A DNA stretch of 43,037 bases, taken from assembly GCA_035567575.1 (NCBI GenBank), contig DATMPR010000378.1:1-43037 (forward strand). Reading direction: 5' to 3'. The translations under genes were made by a program, and so were the position numbers. The stretch is from Bacteroidia bacterium. Lineage in GTDB: Bacteria; Bacteroidota; Bacteroidia; B-17B0; Aurantibacillaceae. The notes beneath the pieces were generated by a model. The model saw nothing but the letters and a program-made list of their open reading frames with translations. It made no database searches and was not told the DNA's origin. Positions 8,933 through 29,800 of this stretch are shown piece after piece. Each line of letters begins with the position of its first letter. The first letter of the stretch is position 1.

Positions 8933-8959
8933 TTTTAACCGTTAAATCTAACCTCCAAA

Positions 8960-10355: not shown

Positions 10356-10457
10356 TTTTCGTACCCGCTTGTTATGTCGAGCGGAGTCGATACGATGTGA
10401 AAAAATAAAGCTTGCTTGGTTAGTAATGTGACTGAGGAGGCGAAGCCGTGAAAAGCG

Positions 10458-10970
10458 ATGGTAGAAAAAGAAAAAAATTGGCACGCGTTATATGTTGCTT
10501 CGCGGCAAGAAAAAAAAGTATTAAAACGTCTTGAACAAAAAAACATTGAAACGTATTTGCCAATTTTAAAAACAATGAAACAATGGAGCGACCGTAAAAA
10601 AATGGTAGAGCTGCCTTTATTGAATGGTTATATTTTTGTGAGAATAACAAATTTAGAAAATGAAAAGACTATACAAACTCCCGGCGTTGTTAATTTTGTC
10701 CGTGCCGAAGGAAAAATTGCCAAAGTACGCGATATTGAGATTGAGCGCTTAAAACAATTGATCGATTTAGGATATCAAATGGAATTGAATGGCGTGAAAC
10801 GAAATTATAGAGAAGGCGATAAAGTAAAAATAACTTCAGGCGCGTTAAAAAATGTAGAAGGATTTGTTGTCGAGAATAAGGAAGGCAGATATATAGATGT
10901 TTTATTAGAAAGTATTGGCCAAAGTATCCGTGTTAAATTGCCCGAGGAAATTTTAATACCAATAAAATAA
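10458..10970 (+). CDS. UpxY-family (NusG-like) transcription antiterminator
   Basis: 170-aa ORF with an NGN-like N-terminus WHALYVASRQEKKVLKRLEQKNIETYLPI...WSDRKKMVELPLLNGYIFV. A KOW-like segment GDKVKITSGALKNVEGFVV follows. It lies at the head of the glycan operon. Confidence 0.8.
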   Translation: MVEKEKNWHALYVASRQEKKVLKRLEQKNIETYLPILKTMKQWSDRKKMVELPLLNGYIFVRITNLENEKTIQTPGVVNFVRAEGKIAKVRDIEIERLKQLIDLGYQMELNGVKRNYREGDKVKITSGALKNVEGFVVENKEGRYIDVLLESIGQSIRVKLPEEILIPIK

Positions 10971-11825
10971 ATGACTGAAGAAAAAGATTGGGATATAATT
11001 ATTAAACCAAAACCAAAATTATTTCATTTTGGTTTTAAAGAAATTTGGGCTTACCGCGACCTCATAATTTTATTTGTAAAACGCGATATTGTTTCACAAT
11101 ACAAACAAACTATTTTAGGCCCATTATGGTTAATTATTCAACCAATATTAACTACTGTTTTTTTTACAATTATTTTTGGAAAATTTGCAAAATTCGATAC
11201 AGGGGGTATTCCATTTCCTATTTTTACTTTATCAGGCTTAACAATTTGGAATTTTTTTGCCATGTCACTTAACAAAACTTCCTCTGTATTTGTAAATAAT
11301 GCTACCATATTTGGTAAAGTTTATTTCCCGCGATTAACAGTTCCTTTTTCTGCGATTATAGCAAACTTCATAACCTTTCTTGTTCAGTTTGCCATTTTAT
11401 TATTGTTGTTGTTTTATTATAAATTTTTTAATAATTATGTTTGGCAAATAAATTATTTCGGATTATTAGGGCTGCTATTATTGCTTATTATTTTCAGTCT
11501 TTTTGGTTTAGGTGCCGGACTAATTGTTTCTTCCATTACTACTAAGTATAGGGATTTAGGATTTTTAGTAGGTTTTGCTTTGCAGTTCGTAATGTACTTT
11601 TCATCTGTTGTTTTTCCTTTAGATAAATTGGGACCTAAATGGGGATCGATTATAAACTTAAATCCATTAATTCATTTAGTTCATTGGTTCAGGGCAATTA
11701 TAATAAATGCTCCAATGCCAAACATGTCATTACTCTTATATAGCACTGCTTTTATGATAATAGTGTTGTTTAGTGGTATTTTAGTTTTTAACCGGGTTGA
11801 AAAATCTTTTATGGATACTGTTTAA
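10971..11825 (+). CDS. wzm: ABC-2 type polysaccharide export permease
   Basis: 284-aa ORF with about 6 TM segments. The N-terminal ELWxYRDL-type motif is present (EIWAYRDLIILFVKRDIVSQYKQTILGPLW). Its stop overlaps the start of the ATPase gene (TAATG). Confidence 0.85.
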   Translation: MTEEKDWDIIIKPKPKLFHFGFKEIWAYRDLIILFVKRDIVSQYKQTILGPLWLIIQPILTTVFFTIIFGKFAKFDTGGIPFPIFTLSGLTIWNFFAMSLNKTSSVFVNNATIFGKVYFPRLTVPFSAIIANFITFLVQFAILLLLLFYYKFFNNYVWQINYFGLLGLLLLLIIFSLFGLGAGLIVSSITTKYRDLGFLVGFALQFVMYFSSVVFPLDKLGPKWGSIINLNPLIHLVHWFRAIIINAPMPNMSLLLYSTAFMIIVLFSGILVFNRVEKSFMDTV

Positions 11826-13114
11826 TGAAAAGCGTAATTAAAGTAGAAAATATTAGCAAACTGTACCAGTTAGGTGATATAGGTTCAGGTTCTATTGGTA
11901 ATGATCTTAAAAAATGGTGGGCTTCTGTAAGAGGTAAAGAAGATCCATTCGCAGCCATTGCAGAAACAAACGATAGAGCTGCTAAGGGAAATTCGGATTA
12001 TGTATGGGCTTTAAAAGATATTAATTTTGAGGTTAACCAGGGGCAAGTCCTTGGTATTGTAGGTAAAAATGGAGCAGGTAAGTCAACATTATTGAAAATA
12101 TTATCTAGAACCACTTTACCTAATAAAGGAGAAATTAAAATTAAAGGGAGAATTGCCAGTTTGCTTGAAGTTGGGACTGGCTTTCATCCTGATCTCACTG
12201 GCAGGGAAAATGTTTTTTTGAACGGCGCAATTCTGGGGATGACCAAAGCAGAAATTAAAAGTAGGTTTGATGAAATAGTTGACTTTAGCGGTGTTGAGCG
12301 ATATATTGATACACCTGTTAAAAGGTATTCATCAGGTATGTATGTGCGTTTAGCTTTTGCAGTGGCCGCGAATTTAGAGCCGGAAATTTTAATAGTTGAT
12401 GAAGTGTTGTCGGTGGGAGATGCAGAATTTCAAAAAAAATGTATGGGTAAAATGAAATCTGTTTCCGGACTCGGCAGAACTATTCTTTTTGTTAGTCATA
12501 ATATTCCTTCGATTCGACTGCTTTGTGATAAATGTCTTTACCTCGAAAAAGGAAGCGTTAAACGCTTGGGAGATACAGATACTATAATTGCTGAATACCT
12601 TGCCGGGGATGTTAAAGAAAAAAATTTAGTGTCGGGAGAAATACCTGATAAATTAAGTTTATATAATACAGGAGAGGCTAAATTCAGGAAGATATATATC
12701 ATTGATAAAAATAACGATAAAGTAAAAGAACTTGAATTTACTGAAAAATTAATTGTTGAATTGGAAATGGAAGTGTTTAAGGATATAGATAGTGTTACCC
12801 TAGAAGTAAATATAGTTAATCAATATGGTGAAGTAGTGATAATGGCGAATGAAAACGAAAAATATAAACCTGTTTCTTTTCAAAAAGGGAGATATTTAAT
12901 AAATGTAGATTTTAATGAAGAATTAATGCCAGGTAATTATTCATTAGGTGTTGGAATCTCTCATTTTCATACAGGAAGCAGTATAGATCTTATAGAAAGT
13001 TTTTATCCATTTACGATAAGTAAAGAATCTAAATCAAAAAACATGGAATACCCTTGGGCAACAATACGGGGATATATTAAACCTAAAACAACGTGGAACG
13101 TAACAAAAATTTAA
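11825..13114 (+). CDS. wzt: Polysaccharide ABC exporter ATP-binding protein with a C-terminal glycan-binding (Wzt_C-like) domain
   Basis: 429-aa ORF with Walker A GKNGAGKST, signature YSSGMYVRLAF and Walker B ILIVDEVLSVGD. An extra ~165-aa beta-rich C-terminal extension (from about 12608) is present, as in Wzt proteins with a carbohydrate-binding module. Confidence 0.9.
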   Translation: MKSVIKVENISKLYQLGDIGSGSIGNDLKKWWASVRGKEDPFAAIAETNDRAAKGNSDYVWALKDINFEVNQGQVLGIVGKNGAGKSTLLKILSRTTLPNKGEIKIKGRIASLLEVGTGFHPDLTGRENVFLNGAILGMTKAEIKSRFDEIVDFSGVERYIDTPVKRYSSGMYVRLAFAVAANLEPEILIVDEVLSVGDAEFQKKCMGKMKSVSGLGRTILFVSHNIPSIRLLCDKCLYLEKGSVKRLGDTDTIIAEYLAGDVKEKNLVSGEIPDKLSLYNTGEAKFRKIYIIDKNNDKVKELEFTEKLIVELEMEVFKDIDSVTLEVNIVNQYGEVVIMANENEKYKPVSFQKGRYLINVDFNEELMPGNYSLGVGISHFHTGSSIDLIESFYPFTISKESKSKNMEYPWATIRGYIKPKTTWNVTKI

Positions 13115-13116
13115 TC

Positions 13117-14100
13117 ATGGAAATAAAAAATTCAAAAATTTTAGTTATCGGCGGTGCAGGCTTCATTGGAAGTTTTGTCGTAGCTGAATTGTTAAAAGAA
13201 GATGTAGCTGAAATTGTGGTGTACGACAATTTCGCACGCGGTAAGAAAGAATACCTTGAAGAATCTTTAAAAGATAAACGTTGTCGGATTTACCCAATTG
13301 GCGGTGACATACGCGAAACCGATATTTTAAATAAAGCAATGGAAGGCATGGATCATGTTATTTGTCTTGCAGCCATGTGGCTTCTTCATTGCAAAGATTT
13401 TCCCCGTACTGCTTTTGAAGTAAATATCGCAGGAACATTTAATATTTTGGAGGCTTGCGTAAATAATAAAATAAAAAAATTAATTTGGTCATCTTCCGCG
13501 TCAGTTTACGGTGATGCTGTTGAATTGCCAATGACAGAATCTCACCCATTTAATAATAAAAATTTTTATGGCGCTACAAAAATTGCAGGTGAAGCAATGG
13601 CGACCGCGTTTAACGACCGTTACGGATTAAAAGTAATTGGCTTGCGTTACATGAATGTATATGGCCCGCATCAGGATCAAACTGCTGCTTATACAGGAGT
13701 GGTTCCAATCATGTTAAATAAAATTGATGCGAACGAAGCGCCGTTAATTAATGGCGATGGAAGTCAGGCATACGATTTTATTTATGTTGAGGATGTAGCA
13801 AAATGTAATGTGCAAGCATTGAAATCAAATGCTGATTTTGGTTTTTATAATGTGGGAACAGAAGTACAGACATCTATAAAATCTTTATGCGATCTGATCC
13901 TCAAACTAAAAAAATCAAATTTAAAAGTCACCTATGTTCCATACAGCGCTGATGATGCACGCGCCTTAGTGCAAAACAGAATTGGATCTGCAGTAAAAGC
14001 AGAAAAAGAATTAGGTTTCAAATATAAATATTCATTGGAAGAAGGTCTCTTATGTTTAATTGCATGGAGAGATAAAAATAAAAAAGCACAATTAGCTTAA
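13117..14100 (+). CDS. Extended-SDR NAD-dependent NDP-sugar epimerase/dehydratase
   Basis: The motifs are ILVIGGAGFIGS, SSSASVYG and YGATK (YxxxK). The ATG at 13117 is preferred over the tracked GTG at 13093, which would overlap wzt by 22 nt. Confidence 0.8.
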   Translation: MEIKNSKILVIGGAGFIGSFVVAELLKEDVAEIVVYDNFARGKKEYLEESLKDKRCRIYPIGGDIRETDILNKAMEGMDHVICLAAMWLLHCKDFPRTAFEVNIAGTFNILEACVNNKIKKLIWSSSASVYGDAVELPMTESHPFNNKNFYGATKIAGEAMATAFNDRYGLKVIGLRYMNVYGPHQDQTAAYTGVVPIMLNKIDANEAPLINGDGSQAYDFIYVEDVAKCNVQALKSNADFGFYNVGTEVQTSIKSLCDLILKLKKSNLKVTYVPYSADDARALVQNRIGSAVKAEKELGFKYKYSLEEGLLCLIAWRDKNKKAQLA

Positions 14101-14102
14101 TC

Positions 14103-15245
14103 ATGGAAAAACGAAATATACCAATTTCACTTCCTTCCATGGGACAGGAAGAATGGGAAGCAACAAAAGAACCAATTTTTAGCGGCTGGATCACACAAGG
14201 CCCTAAAGTTGCAGAGTTCGAAAAATTATTTGCTCAACGACATAAAGTAAAACATGCTATTGCAGTTTCAAATTGTACAACTGCATTGCATTTAGCTTTA
14301 GCTGCATTGGATGTTAAAGAGGGAGATGAAGTTATTGTTCCTGCCTTCACATGGGTATCAACCGCAAATGCAATTATGTATTGCAACGCAAAGCCTGTTT
14401 TTATTGATATTGATATCAAAACATTTAATATTGATGTTACTCAATTAAAAAATAAAATCACATCAAAAACCAAAGTGATCATACCGGTTCACTTATTTGG
14501 TTTGTGCGCAAATATTGATGAGATAAAAAAAATTGCTCCCAATTTAAAAATTGTTGAAGATGGAGCTTGCGCAGCGGGAGCCGGAATTAATGACAGACCC
14601 GCAGGAAGTTTAGGTGACATTGGTTGTTTCTCATTTCATCCTCGTAAATCAGTTACAACCGGTGAAGGCGGAATGCTAACGACAAATGATGATAAATTAG
14701 CTGAACGCTTAAATATGTTACGCAATCACGGAGCATCCGTTTCAGAAGAACAAAGACACAAAGGACCGAAGCCTTATATTTTGCCGGAATTTGACATGAT
14801 TGGTTTTAATTATAGAATGACGGATATACAAGGTGCAGTTGGCGTTGTGCAAATAAAAAAATTGGATAAGTTTATTGATGAGCGCCAGCAATGGGCCGAT
14901 TATTTTACAAAAGAATTATCCGCTATTTCATGGTTAAGAACTCCATTTATTCCGAATGGCTATAAACATGGCTGGCAATCATACGTTTTATTTATTGATG
15001 AAACGAAATCACCAATAAAAAGAAATGATCTGATGGAATTGTTACAACAAAAAGGAATTAGTACACGACCCGGAACGCACGCCGTTCATATGTTAGGTTT
15101 TTATAAAAAAACATTTGGCATTAAACCCGGTGATTATCCGAATGCCTTTGCAGCAAACGAATATAGTATGTCAATACCTTTACATAATAAAATGGTAAAA
15201 GAAGATTTCGAATATATTGTGTCAGCATTAAAATCCATAAAATAA
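14103..15245 (+). CDS. DegT/DnrJ/EryC1-family PLP-dependent sugar aminotransferase
   Basis: 380-aa ORF. The block SFHPRKSVTTGEGGM contains the PLP lysine. LRNHG and FNYRMTDIQGAVG are also typical of the family. Confidence 0.9.
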   Translation: MEKRNIPISLPSMGQEEWEATKEPIFSGWITQGPKVAEFEKLFAQRHKVKHAIAVSNCTTALHLALAALDVKEGDEVIVPAFTWVSTANAIMYCNAKPVFIDIDIKTFNIDVTQLKNKITSKTKVIIPVHLFGLCANIDEIKKIAPNLKIVEDGACAAGAGINDRPAGSLGDIGCFSFHPRKSVTTGEGGMLTTNDDKLAERLNMLRNHGASVSEEQRHKGPKPYILPEFDMIGFNYRMTDIQGAVGVVQIKKLDKFIDERQQWADYFTKELSAISWLRTPFIPNGYKHGWQSYVLFIDETKSPIKRNDLMELLQQKGISTRPGTHAVHMLGFYKKTFGIKPGDYPNAFAANEYSMSIPLHNKMVKEDFEYIVSALKSIK

Positions 15246-15260
15246 ATAATGTTCTGTTTA

Positions 15261-15283
15261 CTCCCAACTCCCAACTCCCAACT
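15261..15283 (+). repeat. Tandem heptamer (CTCCCAA) x3 plus a partial unit, in the intergenic spacer before asnB-1
   Basis: Read directly as ctcccaa ctcccaa ctcccaa ct. It ends 5 nt before the ATG at 15289. Confidence 0.9.
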
Positions 15284-15288
15284 TTCCA

Positions 15289-17181
15289 ATGTGCGGAATA
15301 ACCGGCATATTTAACATTAACGGTACTGCAGTATCAGCTTCAGTTTTAAAAAACATGACTGATAAAATTGCTCATCGCGGTCCTGACAGTGAAGGAATTT
15401 TTATTAACGAAAATATTGGACTCGGTCATCGTCGCCTGGCAATTTTAGATACTTCACGTCTTGGCGGTCAGCCAATGTTTTCAAAAAATGGAGAATGGGC
15501 AGTTATTTTTAATGGTTGTATTTATAATTATCCCGAATTAAAATCTGAATTAAAATCGAGAGGACATTCATTTGTTTCAACAACAGATACAGAAGTTATA
15601 ACGGAAGGCCTCGCAGCTTATGGAATTTCTTTTTTTGAAAGATTCGATGGTATGTTTGCAATTGCAGCGTGGCATGAGCCAAGCAAAACATTGTATTTAA
15701 GCCGCGACCGTTATGGCATTAAACCTTTATATTATTGGCTGAATGGTAAAACGGTTTTATTCTCTTCGGAAATAAAAGCTTTTATGGCTCATCCTGATTT
15801 CAAAGTTGAAGTAAATAAAGCGGCTCTAAACGAATATTTTACTTTCCAAAATCTTTTTTCTTACCAAACACTTTTTAAAGATGTGATAATGTTACCGCCT
15901 GCTAATACTGTAAAGGTAGACACAAGCAGTGTAACAGCAATAAAACATAGTTCGTGGTGGAATTATGATTTTTCGGAAACCGATGAAAGCATGAGTTTCG
16001 AAGATGCCAAAATGGAAACCGAGCGCTTATTAAAAAATGCAGTTAAAAAGCAGATGATATCGGATGTTCCTGTTGGTTCTTATTTATCAGGAGGAATGGA
16101 TTCTGGTTCTTTAACTGCTATTGCAAGTAAACATGTAAACCGCTTAACAACATTTACAGCAGGATTCGATATGTCTTCAGTAACCGGTGTTGAAGCAAAT
16201 TACGATGAACGTCGTGATGCTGAGTTAATGGCTAATTATTTTAAAACTGAACATTATGAGCAAGTAATAAATGCGGGCGATCTCGCTTGGTCATTACCAA
16301 GAGTTGTTTGGCATTTAGAAGATCTTCGTGTTGGAATGAGTTACCCGAATTATTATATAAGTCGTTTAGCTTCAAAATTTGTGAAGGTTTGTTTACAAGG
16401 AACCGGTGGAGACGAATTATACGGTGGTTACCCATGGAGATATTATAGGATTTTTCAATCTTTAGATCAAAGGTCTTTTTTCGATAATTATTATAGTTTC
16501 TGGCAAAGATTGGTTTCGGATAGCGATAAAAAAAATATTTTTAACCAGGATTTATATTCGGGAATTGACATTGATGAACCGCGTAAAGTATTTGAACGTG
16601 TATTTACTTTTAATAAGAAATTGAAATATGAAACACCTGAACAACATATTAATAATAGTTTGTATTTCGAAATAAAAACCTTTTTACCCGGCTTACTTTT
16701 AGTAGGTGATAAATTATCAATGGCAAATGGTTTGGAAGAAAGGTTTCCATTTTTGGATAATGATCTGGTAAATTTTGCCCAGAAAATTCCTGTTCGTCAT
16801 AAATTAGGAAACTTACAAAACATGAAAAAACTGGATGAAAATATGTCATCTAAACGCGATAAGTATAAAGAGTTTGATGATGGGAAAAATGTTTTAAGAA
16901 AAGCTATGCTCGACTTTATTCCTGAATCAATTGTAAATAGAAAAAAGCAAGGTTTTTCAGCACCCGACGAAAGCTGGTATAGAGGTGAGAATGCAGACTA
17001 TGTAAAGGAACTTTTGTTAAATAAAAAAACCATCTCATCGGAATTCATAAATCCAGATTTTACCAAAAAAATTATTGATGAACATGTTAATCATCGTGTT
17101 AATCATCGCTTATTGATTTGGTCCTTGATGAATTTTGAATGGTGGTGTCGTTTATTTTTAAACGGAGAAAAAATCTCATAG
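15289..17181 (+). CDS. asnB: Asparagine synthase-like glutamine-hydrolysing amidotransferase (paralogue 1)
   Basis: 630-aa ORF with the N-terminal nucleophile MCGITGIF. Further blocks are HRGPD, GHRRLAILD, FNGCIYNY and TDTEV, plus the PP-loop SGGMDSGS. Confidence 0.9.
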   Translation: MCGITGIFNINGTAVSASVLKNMTDKIAHRGPDSEGIFINENIGLGHRRLAILDTSRLGGQPMFSKNGEWAVIFNGCIYNYPELKSELKSRGHSFVSTTDTEVITEGLAAYGISFFERFDGMFAIAAWHEPSKTLYLSRDRYGIKPLYYWLNGKTVLFSSEIKAFMAHPDFKVEVNKAALNEYFTFQNLFSYQTLFKDVIMLPPANTVKVDTSSVTAIKHSSWWNYDFSETDESMSFEDAKMETERLLKNAVKKQMISDVPVGSYLSGGMDSGSLTAIASKHVNRLTTFTAGFDMSSVTGVEANYDERRDAELMANYFKTEHYEQVINAGDLAWSLPRVVWHLEDLRVGMSYPNYYISRLASKFVKVCLQGTGGDELYGGYPWRYYRIFQSLDQRSFFDNYYSFWQRLVSDSDKKNIFNQDLYSGIDIDEPRKVFERVFTFNKKLKYETPEQHINNSLYFEIKTFLPGLLLVGDKLSMANGLEERFPFLDNDLVNFAQKIPVRHKLGNLQNMKKLDENMSSKRDKYKEFDDGKNVLRKAMLDFIPESIVNRKKQGFSAPDESWYRGENADYVKELLLNKKTISSEFINPDFTKKIIDEHVNHRVNHRLLIWSLMNFEWWCRLFLNGEKIS

Positions 17182-18239: not shown

Positions 18240-18245
18240 ATTTTT

Positions 18246-19265
18246 ATGATAATAGTTACAGGCGCCACAGGCTTTGTTGGATTCTATTTAGTGAATCAAC
18301 TTAAATCAGAAGGTTTCAAAATTCTTGCTGTTGATATTGGTGGAAAGGAAGAAGCCGATTATTTTAAAAAGAACGGAATTGATTTTGTTCAATTTGATAT
18401 CACAAAGGAAAGTGAATTTGAAAAGCTTCCAAAAACCGGAGTGGATGCTTTTATTAACCTGGCCTGTGTTCAGCCAGCCAACATGCCCGATGAAGTGTAC
18501 GATCCTGCGAAATATGTTAGCGTAAATATTTTAGGTGTCACCAATATTTTCAAATATTGTCAAAAAAATAATATTAAGAAAGTTCTTCATACCATTTCTC
18601 ATCGTAATGTGCAAGGTTTATGGGAAAAAGGCGAAGTTATCAATGAAGAATCTCCTCGAGCAATAAAGTTTACCGGAAAATATTCTATGTTCAGTATTTC
18701 GGAAAGTGCGGCAGCGGATATTATTGAATACTTTAACCAGGATTACGGCATGAATGGAATTATTTTCAGATTGCCTTCAGTTTATGGCTACGGACATCAC
18801 GAAAGTTTTTTTAAAGACGGAAAAGTTGTAAAAACCGGGTTAGGTGTTTTTATTGATAATGCAATTAACGGTGAAACATTTGAAATTTGGGGAGATAAAA
18901 ATAAAGGCAGGGATGTAGTTTATGTGAAAGACGTAGTGTCTGCTATTGTTCTTGCTTTAAAAAGTAAACAAGCCAAAGGCATGTATAATATTGCTTCCGG
19001 AAAAAAATTATCACTTCAGCAGCAAGTGGATGATGTAATAAAAGTTTTTTCGCCGAAAGATAAGCCTAGTAAAATTGTTTATTTGCCCGAAAAACCAAAC
19101 TCTGTAGACCCTTGCGTTTATGATATCAGTAAAGCTAAACGTGAATTGGGTTGGGAACCAAAATATTCTTTTGTTGATATTTTAGCGGATTATAAAAAAG
19201 AAATGGAAAGTGGTAAATGGGAATTTTTATTGAAACGCAAAAAAAGAATGGTAAACGAAAATTAA
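18246..19265 (+). CDS. Extended-SDR family protein with an atypical (apparently degenerate) catalytic motif
   Basis: The Rossmann motif VTGATGFVG is present. At the expected YxxxK position the sequence is FSISE (18690-18704), and HTISH replaces the usual SS(S/T)xxYG block. Confidence 0.65.
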   Translation: MIIVTGATGFVGFYLVNQLKSEGFKILAVDIGGKEEADYFKKNGIDFVQFDITKESEFEKLPKTGVDAFINLACVQPANMPDEVYDPAKYVSVNILGVTNIFKYCQKNNIKKVLHTISHRNVQGLWEKGEVINEESPRAIKFTGKYSMFSISESAAADIIEYFNQDYGMNGIIFRLPSVYGYGHHESFFKDGKVVKTGLGVFIDNAINGETFEIWGDKNKGRDVVYVKDVVSAIVLALKSKQAKGMYNIASGKKLSLQQQVDDVIKVFSPKDKPSKIVYLPEKPNSVDPCVYDISKAKRELGWEPKYSFVDILADYKKEMESGKWEFLLKRKKRMVNEN

Positions 19266-19283
19266 ATTTAAAAAATAGAGTAT

Positions 19284-19868
19284 ATGATAAATCACAACAT
19301 TCCAAAAGATTTCCCCGGTAACGAATTTATGGCGGATAACGTTCGCTCGCTTTTGAAAAAATGTGGACCGAATACAAAATTATTTCCGCTTGCAAAATTA
19401 TGCAAGCCGGATGTAATAGAAATTGGTGATTGGGTACGCGTACATGATTTTGTTTTTATGTGGGGTGGCCTTGGTATTAAAATTGGCAACTACAACGACA
19501 TCCAACCTTTTGTAAATATTTGGGGCGGCGGCGAGTTAATTATGGGAGATTATATTTCAATCGGAGGCGGTTCACAATTACTTACTGCAACTTATGATTA
19601 TAAAGGGTATAGAATGGTGGATGGTTTACCTGAAGATCACACCAATACCTTATTTGGAAAACTGGTTATTGAAAATGATGTTTACGTTGGTGTAAATTGT
19701 ACCATAATGCCAAACGTAACCATTGGAGAAGGAGCTGTTATTGGCGGCGGGAGTTTTGTTAATAAAGATATTGAGCCATGGAGCATTAATGTAGGAAGTC
19801 CGGCAAAAAAAATTGGCGAACGTCCGCGTTTAAAAGACCATATTAAAAACTGGAAAGGAATGCTTTAA
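19284..19868 (+). CDS. Left-handed beta-helix (hexapeptide-repeat) acetyltransferase
   Basis: 194-aa ORF with hexapeptide periodicity: VYVGVNCTIMPNVTIGEGAVIGGGSFVNKDIEPWSINVGSPAKKI. Confidence 0.75.
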   Translation: MINHNIPKDFPGNEFMADNVRSLLKKCGPNTKLFPLAKLCKPDVIEIGDWVRVHDFVFMWGGLGIKIGNYNDIQPFVNIWGGGELIMGDYISIGGGSQLLTATYDYKGYRMVDGLPEDHTNTLFGKLVIENDVYVGVNCTIMPNVTIGEGAVIGGGSFVNKDIEPWSINVGSPAKKIGERPRLKDHIKNWKGML

Positions 19869-19888
19869 TATAAATTAATTTTTTACGA

Positions 19889-20596
19889 ATGAATATTTTG
19901 ACATTTGACATTGATTGGGCCCCTGAAAAGGTTATTGAGGATGTAATAAATTTATTAAGTACATACAATATAAAGGCAACATTTTTTGCAACGCATGAAT
20001 CAGAAATTTTAAAAAAGATTGAGAAAGAAGGAATTCATGAAATGGGAATTCACCCAAATTTTAATCCATTACTGTTGGGACAGGGGGGAAATTATCAAAA
20101 AAAAATAGATGATTTATTGAAAATTTATCCTTCAGCTGTTGGTTTTCGAGCTCATTCATTAACTCATTCATGTCCTATATTACTTTATTGTTTAGAGAAA
20201 GGAATAAAATATGATTCTAATATTTACATTCCTTTCGGTAAAGAGTTGAAGGCTTTTAATTATTTTGGATTGATGAGAATCCCTTATAATTGGGAAGATG
20301 ACGGACAATGGGTTTCAGGAAAATCATTTAGCGATATTGGTTTAAAATTAGATGCCGAATTAAATATCTTTAGTTTTCATCCCATTCATGTTTATTTGAA
20401 TACCTACGACCAAGCCATGTACGATAATGTAAAACAATTTTACCAGATGCCCGATGAGCTATTAAAAAACAGGAATAAAAGCATTCCTGGAACCAGAGAC
20501 TTACTTTTGTTTTTATTAAAGAAATTCGCAGAGGACGGATCACGCGTGCCTACTTTAAAGGAATATTATAATCACATTAAGGAAGATATTGAATAG
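19889..20596 (+). CDS. Divergent polysaccharide deacetylase-like (CE4/NodB-fold, WbmS-like) protein
   Basis: 235-aa ORF. TFDIDW resembles NodB motif 1, and HEMGIHPNF resembles the His-His metal motif. Confidence 0.5.
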   Translation: MNILTFDIDWAPEKVIEDVINLLSTYNIKATFFATHESEILKKIEKEGIHEMGIHPNFNPLLLGQGGNYQKKIDDLLKIYPSAVGFRAHSLTHSCPILLYCLEKGIKYDSNIYIPFGKELKAFNYFGLMRIPYNWEDDGQWVSGKSFSDIGLKLDAELNIFSFHPIHVYLNTYDQAMYDNVKQFYQMPDELLKNRNKSIPGTRDLLLFLLKKFAEDGSRVPTLKEYYNHIKEDIE

Positions 20597-20623
20597 TTTT
20601 TACTCTGAAGAAATTGAACTAAT

Positions 20624-21976
20624 ATGAAAACAGTGACGATAATAGGCGGCGGCGCAAGCGGCATGTTAACTGTAGTGAATATTATTAAAATGTCTACAAA
20701 ACCAACGACTATTAATATTATCGAACCTAATTCAATTGGACTCGGAATGGCTTTTAATGTAGATAGTATGAATTTGTTATTAAATGTCCCTGCCATTAGA
20801 ATGAGCTGTATTTCTACGGAACCAAAACATTTTATTAATTGGATAGCTGAGAAACAATTATCTTATGGAGAAAAAGATTTTGTGCCAAGAAAAATATATG
20901 GTCAATACCTTTCCGATACATATAACAAATTTGTTAAATCAAATAAACTAGTAAGCGTAGATCATATTAAGGATCTTGCAGTGGATATAGTTTTAGAAAA
21001 TGATTCCTATTATGTAGAAACAAAAGCCGGTAAGAACATAAAGTCAGATAAGGTTGTGCTTGCTCTTGGAAATTACCCCCCAAATCATCCTAAAACAAAA
21101 TCTTTAGGTTATATTAATAGTCCTTTATATATTTCAAATCCTTTAAATAATAATTCTTTAGATGGATTAGGTCCGGATATTAAAAATGTTTTTGTATTGG
21201 GGACAGGTTTAACTGCCGTTGATTCAATAATTTTAGTTCGCCAAAAATATCCTAAATCGAATATCATTGCTTTTTCGAACCACGGGTATTTGCCTGTCCA
21301 ACATAATTTGTCTCAAACTTACCCTTCATTTTATGATGAGTTAAAAGGAGTAAAAACAACTTTGGAAATTTTTAAAACAGTAAATAAGCATATTAAAATA
21401 GCTGCGAGCCAACAAATAGATTACAAAGCGGTTACTGATTCGATACGACCTTATACTCAGGAAATATGGAATAATCTTCCCGACGAAGAAAAACTTGCTT
21501 TTCTCCGTCACTTACGTCACATATGGGGAGTGGCGAGGCATCGGATGCCATACGAATCGTCTAATTATATTTACGAATTAATAAACTTTGGTAAAATAAA
21601 ATTGTTCAGTGGAAAAGTGAAGGAGATAGTTGAAGAAAATAAGCACCTGAATATTACTTTGCAAATAGGAAAAAAGCAAATAGAAGAAACTTTTAGCGTA
21701 GATTGTTTGTTGAATTGTACCGGTCCTCAAACCGATTATGAAAAAATCGATAATGAATTGGTAAAAAACATTTTGCAAAAAGGGATAATTCAAACCGATA
21801 AAATTAAATACGGAATTAATACAGATCAAAACGGAGCGATTATCAATAAAGAAAACGAGGTTTCTCAAAAAATTTATACCATTGGTCCGCCAATGAAAGG
21901 AATTTTGTGGGAATGTGTCGCGATACCCGAAATTAAAATGCAGGCGTATAAGCTTGCCGAAAAATTAACCGAATAA
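20624..21976 (+). CDS. FAD/NAD(P)-binding two-Rossmann flavoprotein of unknown function (YdhS-like)
   Basis: 450-aa ORF with an N-terminal TIIGGGASGML and a second dinucleotide motif VFVLGTGLTAVDS. The block HLRHIWGVARHRMP is one I recall from YdhS/PF13454-type proteins. Confidence 0.6.
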   Translation: MKTVTIIGGGASGMLTVVNIIKMSTKPTTINIIEPNSIGLGMAFNVDSMNLLLNVPAIRMSCISTEPKHFINWIAEKQLSYGEKDFVPRKIYGQYLSDTYNKFVKSNKLVSVDHIKDLAVDIVLENDSYYVETKAGKNIKSDKVVLALGNYPPNHPKTKSLGYINSPLYISNPLNNNSLDGLGPDIKNVFVLGTGLTAVDSIILVRQKYPKSNIIAFSNHGYLPVQHNLSQTYPSFYDELKGVKTTLEIFKTVNKHIKIAASQQIDYKAVTDSIRPYTQEIWNNLPDEEKLAFLRHLRHIWGVARHRMPYESSNYIYELINFGKIKLFSGKVKEIVEENKHLNITLQIGKKQIEETFSVDCLLNCTGPQTDYEKIDNELVKNILQKGIIQTDKIKYGINTDQNGAIINKENEVSQKIYTIGPPMKGILWECVAIPEIKMQAYKLAEKLTE

Positions 21977-22833
21977 TGTTTAAAAAGAATAAAATGCAAC
22001 AAACAAAAAAAGATAGCTTAGTAAATAATAAATTTTTTATTTCCGGTTGCGGTAGAAGCGGAACAACCGCAATGGCTAAAATTTTAAATACTGCATCAAA
22101 TGCCGAAGTTTTTGTTGAACAAGAACCAAAGTTATGTATTGAGTCCCGGGATGCTTATAAAGGTATGCTCTCTGATCCAACTGAAACCTTAAGGAACTTA
22201 AAGGAAAAACATATCGATGAAACAATTAATAAGGGATTAATATTTGGTGATAAGAATCAAAATTATTTACCTTTTATTCCATACCTCGAGAAATTATGGA
22301 AACCAAAATATATTTTTATGATTCGGGATGGCCGTGATATTATTCGATCCGGAATTGACAATCGTAAATTTATGAAAAGAGGAGGGATTTTTTCAATGAA
22401 TGAGGATGATGTTAATTCAACTGTTACCGCTAAAGAAGATTGGTGGGATTATAGCAGACTAAGACCTAATATTGGCACAGAATACCATGAAGTTTGGCAG
22501 AGCATGGATATTTTTGAAAAGTATTGTTGGTTTTGGAATGAATACAATGAAGTTCTATTGGAAAATCTTAAAAAAATAGAATCCGAAAGATACATGCTAA
22601 TAGATATTTCATCTCTTACTAAAGAAAAATGCAAAGAGGTTTTTGATTTTTTAGGATTAGAAGGTTTTGATCCTGAGAAGATCGAAAACTTGATCTCTTC
22701 TAAAGTTAATTCTCTCGAAGAAAAAACCGGTAAAGAGCATGTCTTTCCTCACTGGAAGGATTGGTCGGCTGAACAAAATAATATTTTTAATAAGCACTGT
22801 GGTGTGATGATGAAAAAACTGGGGTACTTATGA
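21976..22833 (+). CDS. PAPS-dependent sulfotransferase
   Basis: 285-aa ORF. It has the 5'-PSB-like loop FISGCGRSGTTAMAKIL and the 3'-PB-like FMIRDGRDIIRS. Its start overlaps the upstream stop (TAATG). Confidence 0.8.
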   Translation: MFKKNKMQQTKKDSLVNNKFFISGCGRSGTTAMAKILNTASNAEVFVEQEPKLCIESRDAYKGMLSDPTETLRNLKEKHIDETINKGLIFGDKNQNYLPFIPYLEKLWKPKYIFMIRDGRDIIRSGIDNRKFMKRGGIFSMNEDDVNSTVTAKEDWWDYSRLRPNIGTEYHEVWQSMDIFEKYCWFWNEYNEVLLENLKKIESERYMLIDISSLTKEKCKEVFDFLGLEGFDPEKIENLISSKVNSLEEKTGKEHVFPHWKDWSAEQNNIFNKHCGVMMKKLGYL

Positions 22834-22855
22834 TTTCTGAATTTTATAAATTATA

Positions 22856-24175
22856 ATGAAAAGAAAATATCACCTTTTGCTGTTTGAAGCTATTATTTTT
22901 TATGGTATTTCCATCTATTGGTTTTTCATAAGAAAGAAATTAGTTAATAGCAGGAAGTATGATTCAAAACCGAGATTGTTTTTTGGCCCTACTCCAATTA
23001 TAAATAACAAATATTGGTCTCATTCTCTTATTGAATTAGGTTATACAAGTAAAACGGTAATGAATGGTGTTTATTCTATAAATAATAAAGAAGATTTTGA
23101 TCTGTATTTCGATGAAATTTATGATCCATGGGGTAACTGGAAGTACAGGAAAGTAGCAGATTATTTAAAAATATGGCAGGGCTACAAACTGCTGGATTAT
23201 GCTCTAAAGAATTTTGACATTTTTCATATTCCATATGACGGAATTTTTTTACCAAACTCTATTTTTTGGAAAAAAGAAGCTCTAATCTTAAAAAAATATG
23301 GATGTAAAATTGTCACTATCCCGTATGGCGGAGATTTTTATGTGTATTCAAAGTTAAGAAGTCATTCTCGGCATCATACTTTTTTAATGAGTTACCCTGA
23401 AAAAGCTGATCAGGAAGATTCAATTAACGAAAGAGTTAGTCATTGGAATAAATATTCGGATTGTATTATTGTATCTAGAGCTATAGACAGTATCCCTAAA
23501 TGGGATATTCTAACATTTAGTATTCTAAATATTAATACAAAAGAATGGCAATCACAGGGCAAAAGAAAATTTGAAACAGACGGTGTCAATGGGAGTGTTA
23601 AAATAGTTCACGCGCCAAACCATAGGGGTGTAAAGGGTACGGAATTTATTGTTGAAGCAATAAAGGAATTAAAAGCTGAGGGAATTCTTATCGATTTTAT
23701 TTTAATAGAAAAGATGAAGAACTCTGAGGTTAAGAGAATTTTGCAAACTGAAGCTGATATTTTGCTTGAGCAGATAATTATTGGACACGGATTAAATGCC
23801 ATTGAAGGAATGGCTTGTGGTTTACCGGTGATCACGAATCTTGAAGAGGAAGGGTATGCAAATGTTTTCAGGAGATTTTCTTTTTTTAATGAATGTCCCT
23901 TGGTTTCAGCAACTCCTGAAGACATTAAAGAAACCCTTAGATTATTGATAAAAAATCCAGCATTAAGACAAAAGCTGGGAGATGCCGGAAAAGAATATGC
24001 GGAAAAGTATCATTCATATCGATCATCTCAATATATGTTTACTAAAGTTTATGAAAAGATCTGGCATGGAAAGCAAGTTGATCTTATTAACTTATATCAC
24101 CCATTATTTCCCGACAGTTATAATAACCAAAGCCCGAAAGTTCAGCATCCATTGATCGAAAATAAAATAAAGTGA
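22856..24175 (+). CDS. GT-B fold glycosyltransferase with an N-terminal TM anchor
   Basis: 439-aa ORF. The C-terminal half has GT1/GT4-like blocks VHAPNHRGVKGTEFIVEAIKELK and EGMACGLPVITN. It is a paralogue of the 27327..28571 product. Confidence 0.6.
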   Translation: MKRKYHLLLFEAIIFYGISIYWFFIRKKLVNSRKYDSKPRLFFGPTPIINNKYWSHSLIELGYTSKTVMNGVYSINNKEDFDLYFDEIYDPWGNWKYRKVADYLKIWQGYKLLDYALKNFDIFHIPYDGIFLPNSIFWKKEALILKKYGCKIVTIPYGGDFYVYSKLRSHSRHHTFLMSYPEKADQEDSINERVSHWNKYSDCIIVSRAIDSIPKWDILTFSILNINTKEWQSQGKRKFETDGVNGSVKIVHAPNHRGVKGTEFIVEAIKELKAEGILIDFILIEKMKNSEVKRILQTEADILLEQIIIGHGLNAIEGMACGLPVITNLEEEGYANVFRRFSFFNECPLVSATPEDIKETLRLLIKNPALRQKLGDAGKEYAEKYHSYRSSQYMFTKVYEKIWHGKQVDLINLYHPLFPDSYNNQSPKVQHPLIENKIK

Positions 24176-24233
24176 TCTTCAATAAATTGAAATAGAATAA
24201 TGAAATGAATTTTAAAAAATTTAATTTTATATA

Positions 24234-24827
24234 ATGGAAAAGAACGTAATTCCACATTCGCATACGGTTACAAAAAAAATCCGCCAGTTAACGTATAACC
24301 ATAAATCGTTAGTAATATGGTTTACCGGACTATCCGGATCAGGAAAATCTACTCTGGCTGGTAAATTGGAAGAATTTCTTTTTAAAGACGGAATAAAAAC
24401 TTACGTTCTGGATGGTGATAATATTCGCACCGGATTAAATAAGGATTTAAATTTTTCACATGAAGACAGAGTGGAAAATATCAGGCGGATTGGAGAAGTA
24501 TCTAAATTATTTATTGATGCAGGAGTAGTTGTTTTAACTGCATTTATATCACCGTATGAAGCAGATAGGGCAATTGTCAGAAATCTTCTTGGAGAAAGTG
24601 AGTTCATTGAAGTTTTTGTAAAATGTCCGGTAGAAACTTGTGAGCAACGTGACGTAAAGGGCCTTTATAAAAAAGCACGCGCCGGAGAAATTAAAAATTT
24701 TACCGGAATTAATTCGCCTTACGAAGAACCAAAAAATGCGGAGGTTGTTATTGAAACAAATAAATTAAGTCTTGATGAATGTGTTGAAAAAATCAGTCAA
24801 TATATTCTGCCTCGTCTCAAACCTTAA
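24234..24827 (+). CDS. cysC: Adenylyl-sulfate (APS) kinase
   Basis: 197-aa ORF with P-loop [45 protein letters not shown] and [25 protein letters not shown] are canonical CysC blocks. Confidence 0.95.
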
Positions 24828-24841
24828 AGAAAACATACGGA

Positions 24842-25708
24842 TTGAATATACTAATCACCGGTTGCAATGGTTTAGTTGGAGAAACTTTATCGAAAGAGTT
24901 AAATAAAAATTCTTCTTTAAATCTTTACGGACTTGGACGAACAGATAAAGGCCATATTAACACCATTGTATTAGATCTTAATACAAATTGGTCTGAAAAT
25001 CAATTGCCGCAAAAAATAGATATAATTATTCATCTGGCACAGTCTGAAAAGTTCCGCGAATTTCCTGAGTCATCTTTAGAAGTTTTTAATGTTAATACTA
25101 TTAGTACTCTAAAATTATTAGATTATGCCCGTAAAGCCGGTGCATCAAAGTTTATTTATGCTTCTTCAGGCGGTATTTACGGAAATAGCAATGTCGGATT
25201 TAATGAAGATGATCTGGTAGTAAATAAAAAAGATCTTGGCTTTTACCTTGGTTCAAAATTCTGTTCTGAGATAATCGCTGAAAATTATAACACATTTTTC
25301 GATATTATTATTCTGCGCTTCTTTTTTGTTTACGGAAAAGAACAAAAATCTTCAATGCTTATTCCGCGCCTTTTGAATAACATTTTACAGGAAAAGGAAA
25401 TTGTTATTCAAGGCAACGACGGTATTAAAATAAATCCGGTTCATGTAGATGATGCTTCAAAAGCTATTATAAAATGTTTAGATATTAAGGGAAGTCATAA
25501 AATAAATATTGCCGGCCCGGATGTGCTGAGCTTACGCGAAATTTGTGAAATAATAGGAACTAAGATCGACAAAAAACCAATTTTTAAAGCGCAGGACACT
25601 GAACCAAAACATTTATTTGGAGACATTGCTAAAATGCAAAAACTATTAATTAAACCTGAAATTAAATTTGCAGAGGGAATAAACGAGCTGATCGAAAAGT
25701 ATGCTTAA
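24842..25708 (+). CDS. Extended-SDR NAD-dependent epimerase/dehydratase/reductase
   Basis: 288-aa ORF with ILITGCNGLVG, ASSGGIYG and YLGSK (YxxxK). A TTG start is required, because the Rossmann motif begins at residue 6 and there is no upstream ATG. Confidence 0.75.
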   Translation: MNILITGCNGLVGETLSKELNKNSSLNLYGLGRTDKGHINTIVLDLNTNWSENQLPQKIDIIIHLAQSEKFREFPESSLEVFNVNTISTLKLLDYARKAGASKFIYASSGGIYGNSNVGFNEDDLVVNKKDLGFYLGSKFCSEIIAENYNTFFDIIILRFFFVYGKEQKSSMLIPRLLNNILQEKEIVIQGNDGIKINPVHVDDASKAIIKCLDIKGSHKINIAGPDVLSLREICEIIGTKIDKKPIFKAQDTEPKHLFGDIAKMQKLLIKPEIKFAEGINELIEKYA

Positions 25709-26447
25709 GCTTTTTACCATTGAAGGATATAACCATTTATTAGAGCTTGCTCTTAATAATGATTATGCATTTATAGATTTTGACAAAAGTATAATAGATA
25801 AAACCGAAAAACTTTGTTTATTACGTCACGACATTGATGCCGATCTTAAAGCAGCTTTTGCCATGTCGGAAATTGAAGCGAGTTTGGGTATAAAGGCAAC
25901 TTATTTTTTAATGCTGCGTTCACCTGTTTATAATTTATTCGGGCGACAAAATCATAAATTTACAGAGGGAATACTAAAAAATGGCCATGCAATTGCTCTG
26001 CACTACGATGAAGGTTTTTATCCCGCAAACAATAGAAATTTGCAAGAACATATAGAAGCTGAAGCAAACATTCTTGAAAACATGTTTGGACAGAAAATCA
26101 GAACTGTTTCTTTTCATCAACCGGGACCTAAGATCATCTCTAATGAAATAAGGATTAAGAATTATATTAATACTTATGATAAAGAAGATTTAAAGGATAT
26201 TCAATATTTTTCTGATTCAAATAAGGTTTGGAAAAAAGATAATGCCTGGGAAATATTCGAAAAAGGCGAACATAAAAAGATTCACTTGCTTATTCATCCA
26301 ATGTGGTGGATCACAGAAAAAGAATATAGTACGGAAGAATTATGGGATAAAGTTCTGTTAGATAATATTGGAAGAAGCATGAACCAAATTGTGGAGACCG
26401 AAAGGGCTTTTGGAAATAAACGTTCTGTGAAAATTAATAAAGAGTAA
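25701..26447 (+). CDS. Divergent polysaccharide deacetylase-like (CE4-fold) protein
   Basis: 248-aa ORF. LLRHDIDADL resembles motif 1, GIKATYFLM is present, and GHAIALHYD is a His-His-like motif. Confidence 0.5.
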   Translation: MLKLFTIEGYNHLLELALNNDYAFIDFDKSIIDKTEKLCLLRHDIDADLKAAFAMSEIEASLGIKATYFLMLRSPVYNLFGRQNHKFTEGILKNGHAIALHYDEGFYPANNRNLQEHIEAEANILENMFGQKIRTVSFHQPGPKIISNEIRIKNYINTYDKEDLKDIQYFSDSNKVWKKDNAWEIFEKGEHKKIHLLIHPMWWITEKEYSTEELWDKVLLDNIGRSMNQIVETERAFGNKRSVKINKE

Positions 26448-29798: not shown

Positions 29799-29800
29799 GT

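Follow-up and report, generated by a model that had tools for sequence, protein, structure and literature searches.

We analysed a 43,037-nucleotide stretch of DNA (hereafter the window), which is contig C378 of the metagenome-assembled genome (MAG) of an uncultured Bacteroidota bacterium (assembly of 527 contigs, 86% complete). Its G+C content is similar to that of the genome (33.6% vs 34.8%). Positions 20624-24827 hold four close-packed genes on the plus strand, which code for a flavoprotein, a sulfotransferase, a GT4-type glycosyltransferase (GT) and the adenylyl-sulfate (APS) kinase CysC. A preliminary description had presented this segment as a self-contained sulfation module of a sulfotransferase and a dedicated APS kinase (cysC), with a GT between them. 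All three genes are present, and both the open reading frames (ORFs) and the profiles place a canonical cysC two genes past the sulfotransferase gene with a membrane-anchored GT between them, but the first gene, for the flavoprotein, had been overlooked and the sulfotransferase gene is the second. Together with the preceding gene for a WbmS-like deacetylase, these genes probably represent the sulfation part of an operon for a surface glycan. Spacing inside this block, which lies on a single strand, ranges from -1 to 58 nt: the TAA stop codon of the flavoprotein gene and the ATG of the sulfotransferase gene share one base (TAATG), and the remaining gaps are of 22, 58 and 14 nt. From the UpxY gene onward all genes are co-directional, and the operon continues to the end of the window. 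Its remainder consists of amino-sugar, amidotransferase, formyltransferase and GT genes.

By profile, motifs and fold, the 285-residue protein is a member of the superfamily of sulfotransferases that depend on 3'-phosphoadenosine-5'-phosphosulfate (PAPS), and sulfuryl transfer is predicted from this membership. It scored above the gathering cut-offs of Sulfotransfer_1 (32.0 bits vs 22) and Sulfotransfer_3 (29.7 vs 27), and CysC matched APS_kinase at 236.7 bits, so that both enzymes passed the profile check that had been proposed for them. The two PAPS-binding loops reported previously are indeed found, GCGRSGTT at residues 24-31 and RDGRDIIRS at residues 117-125. In an alignment of 26 sequences, the window protein and 25 homologues, six residues are invariant (R27, S28, E48, K93, R117 and S125) and three more are almost so (G29, T30 and T31, ≥90%). 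An AlphaFold model built on the homologue alignment (predicted local distance difference test score, pLDDT, 93; predicted template-modelling score, pTM, 0.89) is globular, with a longest helix of about 20 residues and no coiled-coil. Its top-50 Foldseek matches in the PDB are all sulfotransferases, with the human tyrosylprotein sulfotransferases (TPST) TPST2 and then TPST1 coming first (E = 5e-6, template-modelling score, TM, ~0.52). A phmmer search of the PDB sequences reached TPST only at E = 0.5, and the fold comparison alone is informative. The window protein shares with TPST1/2 (PDB 3ap3, 5wrj) the GxxRSGTT 5'-phosphosulfate-binding loop, the RDGRxxxxS 3'-phosphate-binding motif and the distance from an Arg to a Glu residue. 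E48 sits 21 residues past R27, like the residues that we take to be R78 and E99 of TPST2, while the phmmer alignment to TPST puts the gap elsewhere.

CysC is, by its sequence, a canonical APS kinase. It scored 273 bits with TIGR00455 (cut-off 138.7) and 299.7 bits with NF003013 (cut-off 163), and it holds the P-loop GLSGSGKST and the LDGDNIR...ENIRR motifs. No cysD or cysN was found among the window ORFs, as the preliminary description had noted, with the expectation that APS would come from elsewhere in the cell. Both genes are grouped with cysH on contig C240, and this cysN codes for a 414-residue protein without kinase domain. The CysH protein carries the cysteine motifs CC...CxxC (CCFIRK and SIGCAPCT), which are a sign of Fe-S APS reductases. 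As CysH is thus of the APS-reductase type, assimilation does not depend on PAPS, which serves sulfation only.

We then turned to PAPS supply in the whole genome. A cysC gene coding for 176-178 residues is found in all 14 same-genus genomes, but it is distinct from that of the window, with only 46% identity between the products. In the present assembly a remnant of this genus-wide gene is found at C314:1366-1596 (minus strand), in its usual syntenic place between genes for a FemAB-like protein of 420 residues and a protein of 311 residues. The last 77 residues are kept (98-174) and the P-loop half is gone. This looks like displacement of the genus cysC by the operon cysC, in a MAG assembly in which the truncation is taken as assembled. 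The possibility that the window cysC is the normal copy of the genus was rejected on the basis of the 46% identity and of the remnant. A whole-genome search found only two APS kinase genes, this 77-residue remnant and the window cysC, which is the sole intact one of the assembly. Sulfotransferase genes other than that of the window number at least four, with three on contig C278 and one on contig C492. Because the genus cysC is truncated and these other sulfotransferases are present, the window cysC probably feeds all of them, and it is probably the general and sole PAPS source of the cell. Thus, the co-occurrence of sulfotransferase and APS kinase in one glycan operon with an ATP-binding cassette (ABC) exporter stands, but the terms 'self-contained' and 'dedicated' do not. 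Two genes of the Inositol_P family elsewhere in the genome are candidates for phosphatases of 3'-phosphoadenosine-5'-phosphate (PAP).

Among the other sulfotransferase-family genes, the three at C278:3708-7619 share a cluster with genes for a GT, an acyl-CoA dehydrogenase, FabH, an acyl carrier protein and large membrane proteins, which could be a pathway for a sulfated lipid or glycolipid. The fourth (C492:1752-2618) is on a short, low-GC contig. The window sulfotransferase was not found in any of the 14 same-genus genomes, and the sulfation genes are therefore accessory in this host. One of these genomes, G001, was considered as sharing the window locus and rejected: it lacks the sulfotransferase, and its second cysC (54% identity) is in a different, Wzx-type locus. 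In that locus (L086, G001 contig C85, ~9883-15408) the second cysC adjoins the gene of a 307-residue protein with a sulfotransferase-like GAAKSGTT loop, which hints that sulfated glycans may be common in the genus.

The gene identities, folds, motifs and gene order, and the make-up of the sulfur pathway in the genome, are established directly. The best explanation for them, with a probability of roughly 0.8, is that CysC makes PAPS from housekeeping APS and that the TPST-like enzyme uses it for the sulfation, in the cytoplasm, of a sugar on a lipid-linked glycan. Positions 19889-24827 would then be the sulfation part of an UpxY-controlled, Wzm/Wzt-dependent surface-glycan operon. CysDN, encoded on another contig, would make APS, which CysC (24234-24827) would phosphorylate to PAPS, and the sulfotransferase would move the sulfuryl group to a sugar of the undecaprenyl-linked glycan at the cytoplasmic face of the membrane. 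[quoted passage not shown] The flavoprotein would be part of this functional unit, where it would most likely N-oxygenate an amine on the acceptor residue. As the ancestral cysC of the host has decayed, the cell's other sulfotransferases would now also draw their PAPS from the operon cysC. Since the export operon codes for a sulfotransferase, for an N-hydroxylase-like flavoprotein and for the one PAPS-making kinase that is intact in the assembly, the exported chain is very probably sulfated.

Such modules are of an already known kind. Clusters for sulfated capsules with PAPS genes and sulfotransferases have been described in Vibrio sp. KMM 8419 and Cobetia marina KMM 1449 (PMC11641403, PMC11766843), and gene-level evidence for sulfated surface polysaccharides is thus less scarce than the preliminary description had it. 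The combination of PAPS genes with a sulfotransferase has been termed a hallmark of sulfated polysaccharide synthesis, polysaccharide sulfotransferases being poorly characterized and sulfated bacterial polysaccharides being of biotechnological interest (PMC11641403). The window bears this hallmark, with cysC and a sulfotransferase gene among GT genes, sugar-modifying genes and wzm/wzt. Like it, the Vibrio and Cobetia loci bring sulfotransferase(s) and PAPS-synthesis gene(s) together in a polysaccharide cluster with an ABC transporter. However, they are group 2/3 capsule loci of the KpsMT type rather than Wzm/Wzt with Wzt_C, and they have extra cysDN(C) genes, and also cysQ in Cobetia, where the window has a local cysC only. 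Furthermore, the window sulfotransferase is of a different family (TPST-like, with WbmS and methyltransferase partners), and an N-hydroxylase-like flavoprotein is a member of the unit. The rhizobial NodH/NodPQ and LpsS systems also resemble the window, in having a pathway-specific PAPS supply and a carbohydrate sulfotransferase. However, NodPQ brings both ATP sulfurylase and kinase, the substrates are Nod factor and lipopolysaccharide, and no connection with a Wzt_C exporter is known.

Table 1. Genes of the surface-glycan operon in the window and the matches on which their annotation is based.
Product	Positions	Strand	Supporting matches
UpxY-family transcription antiterminator, operon head	10458..10970	+	NCBIfam NF033644, 138.5 bits (cut-off 100)
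Wzm, ABC-2 permease of glycan exporter	10971..11825	+	NCBIfam Wzm/RfbD and KpsM matches; 46-47% identity to Wzm of L115/L116
Wzt ATPase with Wzt_C	11825..13114	+	Pfam ABC_tran, 81.7 bits; Wzt_C, 57 bits (cut-off 30.4), residues 280-403
SDR (WbpP/WbgU-like), DegT aminotransferase, AsnB-like amidotransferase (amino-sugar/uronamide genes)	13093..17181	+	NCBIfam and PDB matches
WbmS-like protein of carbohydrate esterase family 4 (CE4) type (polysaccharide deacetylase-like)	19889..20596	+	Pfam PF22537, 182 bits; PDB 3hft (Bordetella WbmS), E = 3.5e-40
FAD/NAD(P)-binding flavoprotein, 450 aa	20624..21976	+	PF13454, 115.7 bits
TPST-like PAPS-type sulfotransferase, 285 aa	21976..22833	+	Sulfotransfer_1/3 above gathering scores
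Membrane-anchored GT4-type glycosyltransferase, 439 aa	22856..24175	+	Pfam Glycos_transf_1, 33.6 bits; Glyco_trans_1_2, 28.9 bits
CysC, adenylyl-sulfate (APS) kinase, 197 aa	24234..24827	+	Pfam APS_kinase, 236.7 bits
Second, divergent CE4-like protein	25701..26447	+	25% identity over 116 residues to L048 c25 protein, pairwise E = 4e-7

Genes of the operon are listed in Table 1. The GT4-type enzyme encoded in the sulfation block has a single N-terminal hydrophobic helix (residues 7-25, as read from the sequence) and a paralogue encoded at 27297-28571. Scans of positions 10000-29900 for sigma-70 promoters and terminators gave counts equal to those of shuffled sequences and are uninformative; promoters of Bacteroidota differ from the sigma-70 consensus that was used. 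At 8327-9715 and 34784-35938, the window also harbours HisH- and HisF-like genes and a gene for an N-acetyl-sugar amidotransferase of the WbuX family (302 bits), by which an acetamidino sugar is predicted in the glycan.

To place the sulfotransferase in its family, a profile search was made of 1.84 billion representative sequences, which returned 144 homologues with E ≤ 1e-30 and, when the limit was relaxed to E ≤ 1e-10, 1394; the family is thus of no great size. Genetic environments were surveyed by scanning one genome per species, with ORF clustering and a 10-kb neighbourhood, which yielded 75 loci spread over many phyla. The close homologues among them are all set in glycan genes (SDR, DegT, AsnB, WbmS, Wzx or Wzm/Wzt), and none was found in a protein or lipid context. 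The close homologues (39-53% identity) account for 28 loci, 17 of which are from Poribacteria. A gene for a class-I S-adenosylmethionine (SAM) methyltransferase directly precedes that of the sulfotransferase in 26 of these 28 loci; WbmS-like, SDR, DegT and AsnB genes usually lie further upstream, and genes for a multi-transmembrane protein and a Wzx-type flippase usually follow. In most of the close loci, across phyla, the SDR is 54-73% identical to that of the window, and in the two branches of the family most loci encode SDR, DegT and AsnB homologues upstream of the sulfotransferase. The flavoprotein of the window stands in the place of the methyltransferase.

The distant homologues (28-34% identity, 16 loci) are mostly fusions, 12 of them being sulfotransferase-methyltransferase proteins of ~500 residues. 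Larger fusions of 835-882 residues (P0190, P0211 and P0244) have the sulfotransferase and methyltransferase domains at the N-terminus, and the C-terminus of P0190, the only one of these C-termini that was read, resembles a conserved, c25-like/CE4-like neighbour. The product of the window gene at 25701-26447, for which a Pfam scan gave no match, is distantly related to this CE4-like domain of P0190-type fusions. In 11 loci outside Poribacteria a WbmS-like homologue is encoded beside the sulfotransferase or close to it, as also in L112, where the sulfotransferase gene adjoins wzt. Based on these neighbours and fusions, the deacetylase-like protein, the methyltransferase and the sulfotransferase form an old functional unit that has repeatedly been tied to Wzt_C exporters. 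A TPST-like sulfotransferase travelling with a CE4-like deacetylase and a SAM methyltransferase looks new as a gene association. The arrangement recalls the heparan-sulfate N-deacetylase/N-sulfotransferases (NDST; PDB 8ccy), which couple a deacetylase to a sulfotransferase much as the WbmS- or CE4-like protein is a neighbour or fusion partner here, and NDST1 is among the fold matches of the window enzyme. Nevertheless, the deacetylases belong to unrelated folds and families, a methyltransferase or flavoprotein intervenes in our loci, and the acceptor is here deduced from the genes.

Two groups of loci in this survey deserve mention. In 17 genomes of sponge-symbiont Candidatus Poribacteria (L007-L021, L038, L042, L043) a near-identical block codes for Gfo/Idh/MocA, a hexapeptide acetyltransferase, SDR, DegT, AsnB, a 367-residue protein, methyltransferase, sulfotransferase, a multi-transmembrane protein and Wzx, from which a conserved sulfated, methylated amino-uronic glycan is predicted. 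In L006 (7819-9264), L026 and L047, a B12-binding radical-SAM gene is found between the WbmS-like gene and the methyltransferase-sulfotransferase pair, and a radical-SAM domain is fused to the sulfotransferase domain in P0223.

These contexts bear on the nature of the substrate and of the donor. Tyrosylprotein sulfotransferases being the best matches in both fold and sequence, the enzyme might act on a protein tyrosine, in the manner of TPST or RaxST, or on a lipid or small molecule. We consider this very improbable, as identity to TPST is just 15-18% with a TM of ~0.52, TPST1/2 are Golgi enzymes that act on protein tyrosines, and all genomic contexts in our survey are glycan loci, with fusions to Wzt, methyltransferase and CE4-like domains. 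The donor might also be something other than PAPS. Campylobacter uses APS-kinase homologues in its O-methyl phosphoramidate (MeOPN) pathway, where a Cj1415-type kinase goes with glutamine kinase, amidohydrolase and cytidylyltransferase genes, and a kinase and sulfotransferase-fold protein that use a cofactor such as 3'-phospho-CDP-phosphoramidate could install a (methyl)phosphoramidate; the constant methyltransferase partner would suit a methylated phospho-group. This is hardly probable at all, given that the kinase reaches 273-300 bits with equivalog and subfamily models of APS kinases and keeps the canonical LDGDNIR...ENIRR motifs. In addition, no glutamine-kinase-like or large gene of the phosphoenolpyruvate-utilizing type is present among the window ORFs, although no profile search was aimed at Cj1416-1418. 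Most loci of the family are devoid of dedicated donor genes, which fits a housekeeping donor such as PAPS.

The flavoprotein gave Pfam matches to PF13454, to Pyr_redox_2 and, weakly, to HI0933_like only. Lys_Orn_oxgnase (PF13434) has no match in the window protein and only a faint precomputed one in relatives. No relative was detected by phmmer among the PDB sequences, and a literature search on YdhS found no functional study. The model of the protein (pLDDT 90) was more informative: its best Foldseek match is the aspartate N-hydroxylase FzmM (E = 2e-23, TM 0.77), followed by the ornithine, lysine, putrescine and cadaverine N-hydroxylases SidA, PvdA, KtzI, DesB and DfoA, and the top-50 matches are all N-hydroxylases. 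The modelled fold is that of class-B N-hydroxylating monooxygenases, and N-hydroxylation itself is predicted. The window protein has two dinucleotide-binding motifs (GGGASG and GTGLT), like the class-B enzymes (FzmM/CreE, SidA, PvdA, KtzI, DesB, DfoA), and its fold matches theirs at TM 0.63-0.77. In contrast, identity to them is 10-14%, it belongs to PF13454 (YdhS-like) and not to the Lys/Orn oxygenase family, and none of the known class-B enzymes is tied to APS kinase or glycans.

The flavoprotein family comprises 1291 word-based matches and is scarce in Bacteroidota (5/400 genomes). In a tree, two well-supported clades of five and three members are linked to APS kinase in all cases, and to a sulfotransferase wherever the contig is long enough. 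The clade of the window includes L211, with the order GT, flavoprotein (78% identity), CysC (83% identity) and AsnB, and L212, where CysC follows the flavoprotein. It also includes L115 and L116, in which Wzm, CysC, flavoprotein and Wzt(Wzt_C) follow one another, with a sulfotransferase further on. In the second clade, the orders are GT4, CysC, flavoprotein and sulfotransferase (L216), sulfotransferase, CysC, non-ribosomal peptide synthetase (NRPS) and flavoprotein (L217), and sulfotransferase, a flavoprotein-CysQ fusion and CysC (L114). The CysQ domain of this fusion scored 254.6 bits with TIGR01331 (cut-off 228.8). L176 is a third, separate case, in which a WcaJ-like transferase gene is followed by those of CysC and the flavoprotein. 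The cysC linkage of P0164 and P0133 was forecast from the tree before inspection and was confirmed in both. The link of these two clades with APS kinase and sulfotransferase looks new. The two NRPS-type clusters contain other genes as well, for PALP and ornithine-cyclodeaminase-like proteins and a condensation domain in L114 (4062-9769), and for an NRPS module, a thioesterase and a penicillin-amidase-like protein in L217 (1107-7392); their products may be small molecules of an N-sulfonated or N-sulfooxy kind. Further flavoprotein-family members follow SBP_bac_11/permease/ABC(TOBE) importer genes or lie beside a gene of the TauE/SafE sulfite-exporter family (L118, L157, L160 and L129, L148, L151), which hints at a link of the wider PF13454 family with sulfur oxyanions.

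L115 and L116 are also the nearest relatives of the window as whole loci. Their products share 83-84% (SDR), 90% (DegT), 62% (Wzt) and 72-73% (AsnB) identity with those of the window, and L115 alone has HisF and UpxY at 77% and 75% identity. The C-domains of their Wzt proteins are 48-50% identical to that of the window. Their sulfotransferase is of another family, with no detectable similarity to ours. Since both share CysC and the flavoprotein with the window but have a different sulfotransferase, glycans of this type seem to have retained sulfation, with the transferase having been exchanged.

A number of observations weigh against a sulfation unit built from these genes. The profile scores of the sulfotransferase are modest (30-32 bits), and E48 is a candidate catalytic base by its spacing only. 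cysC lies within 10 kb of the sulfotransferase gene in just two of the 75 loci, one with a close homologue and L052 with a distant one, and their pairing is therefore no trait of the sulfotransferase family. The flavoprotein, for its part, neighbours no other sulfotransferase-family member in the 75-locus survey, and most of its family is away from cysC. This holds for nearly all of 80 metagenome loci (28-38% identity), with L176 as the only one that has cysC, for five of five Bacteroidota genomes and for three of three homologues at 40-42% identity. That the whole flavoprotein family is cysC-linked was rejected on these counts, and the linkage claim is therefore limited to the two clades and one further case. 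Finally, the MAG being 86% complete, a missing contig could carry another cysC.

Some of these data could mean that the co-location is largely incidental, with cysC being a replacement housekeeping PAPS source that arrived with the operon or was inserted in it, and glycan sulfation, if any, being minor. The truncated ancestral cysC, the at least four further sulfotransferase genes and the lack of cysC in 73 of the 75 homologous sulfotransferase loci would all fit. However, the closest relatives, L211 (cysC 83% identity), L212, L115 and L116, keep cysC beside the same flavoprotein in the same type of glycan operon, and the sulfotransferase family is confined to glycan loci. We therefore judge an incidental association improbable and retain sulfation of the exported glycan as the explanation of the locus.

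More specific chemistry can be proposed for the flavoprotein. It might N-hydroxylate an amine freed by the WbmS-like deacetylase, with the sulfotransferase O-sulfonating the resulting N-OH to an N-sulfooxy group. The gene order of deacetylase, N-hydroxylase and sulfotransferase would be collinear with this chemistry, the flavoprotein gene overlaps that of the sulfotransferase, and amine N-hydroxylases are the sole fold matches of the flavoprotein, which has two dinucleotide-binding motifs. Flavoprotein, APS kinase and sulfotransferase also recur as a triad, both in glycan loci (L115, L116, L176, L216) and in the NRPS-type clusters (L114, L217). Nevertheless, we regard an N-sulfooxy product as unlikely. 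The flavoprotein directly adjoins CysC or CysQ more often than the sulfotransferase, and a role in cofactor supply (PAPS/PAP handling) therefore fits equally well. Orthologues of the window sulfotransferase operate elsewhere without a flavoprotein, much of the flavoprotein family is in housekeeping contexts, and literature searches found no N-hydroxylated or N-sulfooxy sugar and no precedent for a pair of N-hydroxylase and sulfotransferase.

As to where on the chain the sulfate might be, the preliminary description had proposed a terminal cap. The sulfate, or a sulfated and otherwise modified end residue, would cap the non-reducing end, stop polymerization and be read by Wzt_C for export, which would be a new terminator chemistry. 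For O antigens made by the ABC-dependent route, the caps known are methyl, methyl-phosphate and 3-deoxy-D-manno-octulosonic acid (Kdo), which are fitted by coiled-coil-ruler proteins (PMC3482155, PMC11231755), and a literature search on the terminators of this pathway found no sulfate cap. The window Wzt bears a Wzt_C domain, and no WbdD-like kinase or methyltransferase, nor any other terminator candidate, is present among the window ORFs. Elsewhere in the family, the sulfotransferase gene directly follows wzm-wzt in L032, L037, L048 and L050 and has wzt nearby in L049; all five Wzt proteins, from Methylococcaceae, Planctomycetota and Mariprofundus, bear Wzt_C. P0020, among the closest homologues (52% identity), is found in the order WbmS-like protein, sulfotransferase, Wzt(Wzt_C) and methyltransferase. 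In P0191, a single chain of 910 residues fuses ABC_tran, Wzt_C, this sulfotransferase (32% identity to window residues 3-285, E = 1e-50) and a SAM methyltransferase, and in P0188 a helical-repeat region of ~370 residues precedes the sulfotransferase domain. L115 and L116, with cysC and the flavoprotein gene between wzm and wzt, keep the conserved Wzt C-domain.

The comparison with characterized systems is also suggestive. The E. coli O9a terminator WbdD, a kinase-methyltransferase, and K. pneumoniae O7 ORF6 and O4 ORF7 serve Wzm/Wzt exporters with a carbohydrate-binding domain, as in the window (PMC3482155, PMC11231755). The constant methyltransferase partner recalls the two activities of WbdD: the sulfotransferase family likewise pairs group transfer with a SAM methyltransferase, next to or fused to wzt and once after a long helical region. 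In the Bordetella wbm O-antigen locus, wbmS is in a variable region linked to modifications of the terminal sugar (PMC3849452). This locus resembles ours in its WbmS homologue and its ABC-dependent O-antigen type, with SDR, aminotransferase, amidotransferase and formyltransferase genes. It differs in that no sulfotransferase or cysC has been reported in it (PMC3849452) and the reaction of WbmS is only putative; a literature search for wbmS by name gave unrelated acronyms only.

Other observations speak against a cap. The window sulfotransferase gene is 9 kb from wzt, though in the same operon, and the protein has neither a methyltransferase partner nor a coiled-coil, unlike published terminators, which carry a coiled-coil ruler (PMC11231755). 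In 26 of the 28 closest genomic homologues the gene is accompanied by that of a Wzx-type flippase and the 10-kb neighbourhood contains no ABC exporter, a context that points to internal decoration in those loci. The sulfotransferase of L115 and L116 is from a different family. The window Wzt C-domain is only weakly similar to those of the distant, sulfotransferase-adjacent Wzt proteins (23% identity, E = 0.006), and because of this low similarity no shared Wzt_C ligand can be argued. Thus, the adjacency to and fusion with Wzt strengthen the idea of a sulfate cap without proving it, and we hold it as tentative, with somewhat less than even confidence.

Both proposals could hold at once. A capping module made of a WbmS/CE4-like protein, a second modifying enzyme and the TPST-like sulfotransferase would then put a sulfate-bearing group on the last sugar, to be read by Wzt_C. 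Most loci would use a SAM methyltransferase as the second enzyme and the window the flavoprotein, whose cassette with APS kinase and sulfotransferase would make N-sulfooxy groups. Such a combination is quite unlikely. If true, sulfate would join methyl, methyl-phosphate and Kdo as a fourth chemical class of cap that ends the chain and licenses its export. A portable cassette of FzmM/SidA-fold flavoprotein, APS kinase, CysQ and sulfotransferase would make N-O-SO3- by N-hydroxylation followed by O-sulfonation, and it would serve glycans and NRPS-type natural products alike.

For the organism, the locus indicates that a local cysC can be the only PAPS source of a cell, and that its position alone is no ground for calling it dedicated. 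For ABC-dependent glycans, whose termination and recognition are understood for three cap chemistries only, the Wzt-adjacent or Wzt-fused sulfotransferase family provides a testable candidate for a fourth cap, with a defined Wzt_C domain. Lastly, the flavoprotein-APS kinase-sulfotransferase triad, with one CysQ fusion, gives a first clue to function for part of the YdhS/PF13454 family, which is large and unannotated, and points to possible N-O-sulfate chemistry.

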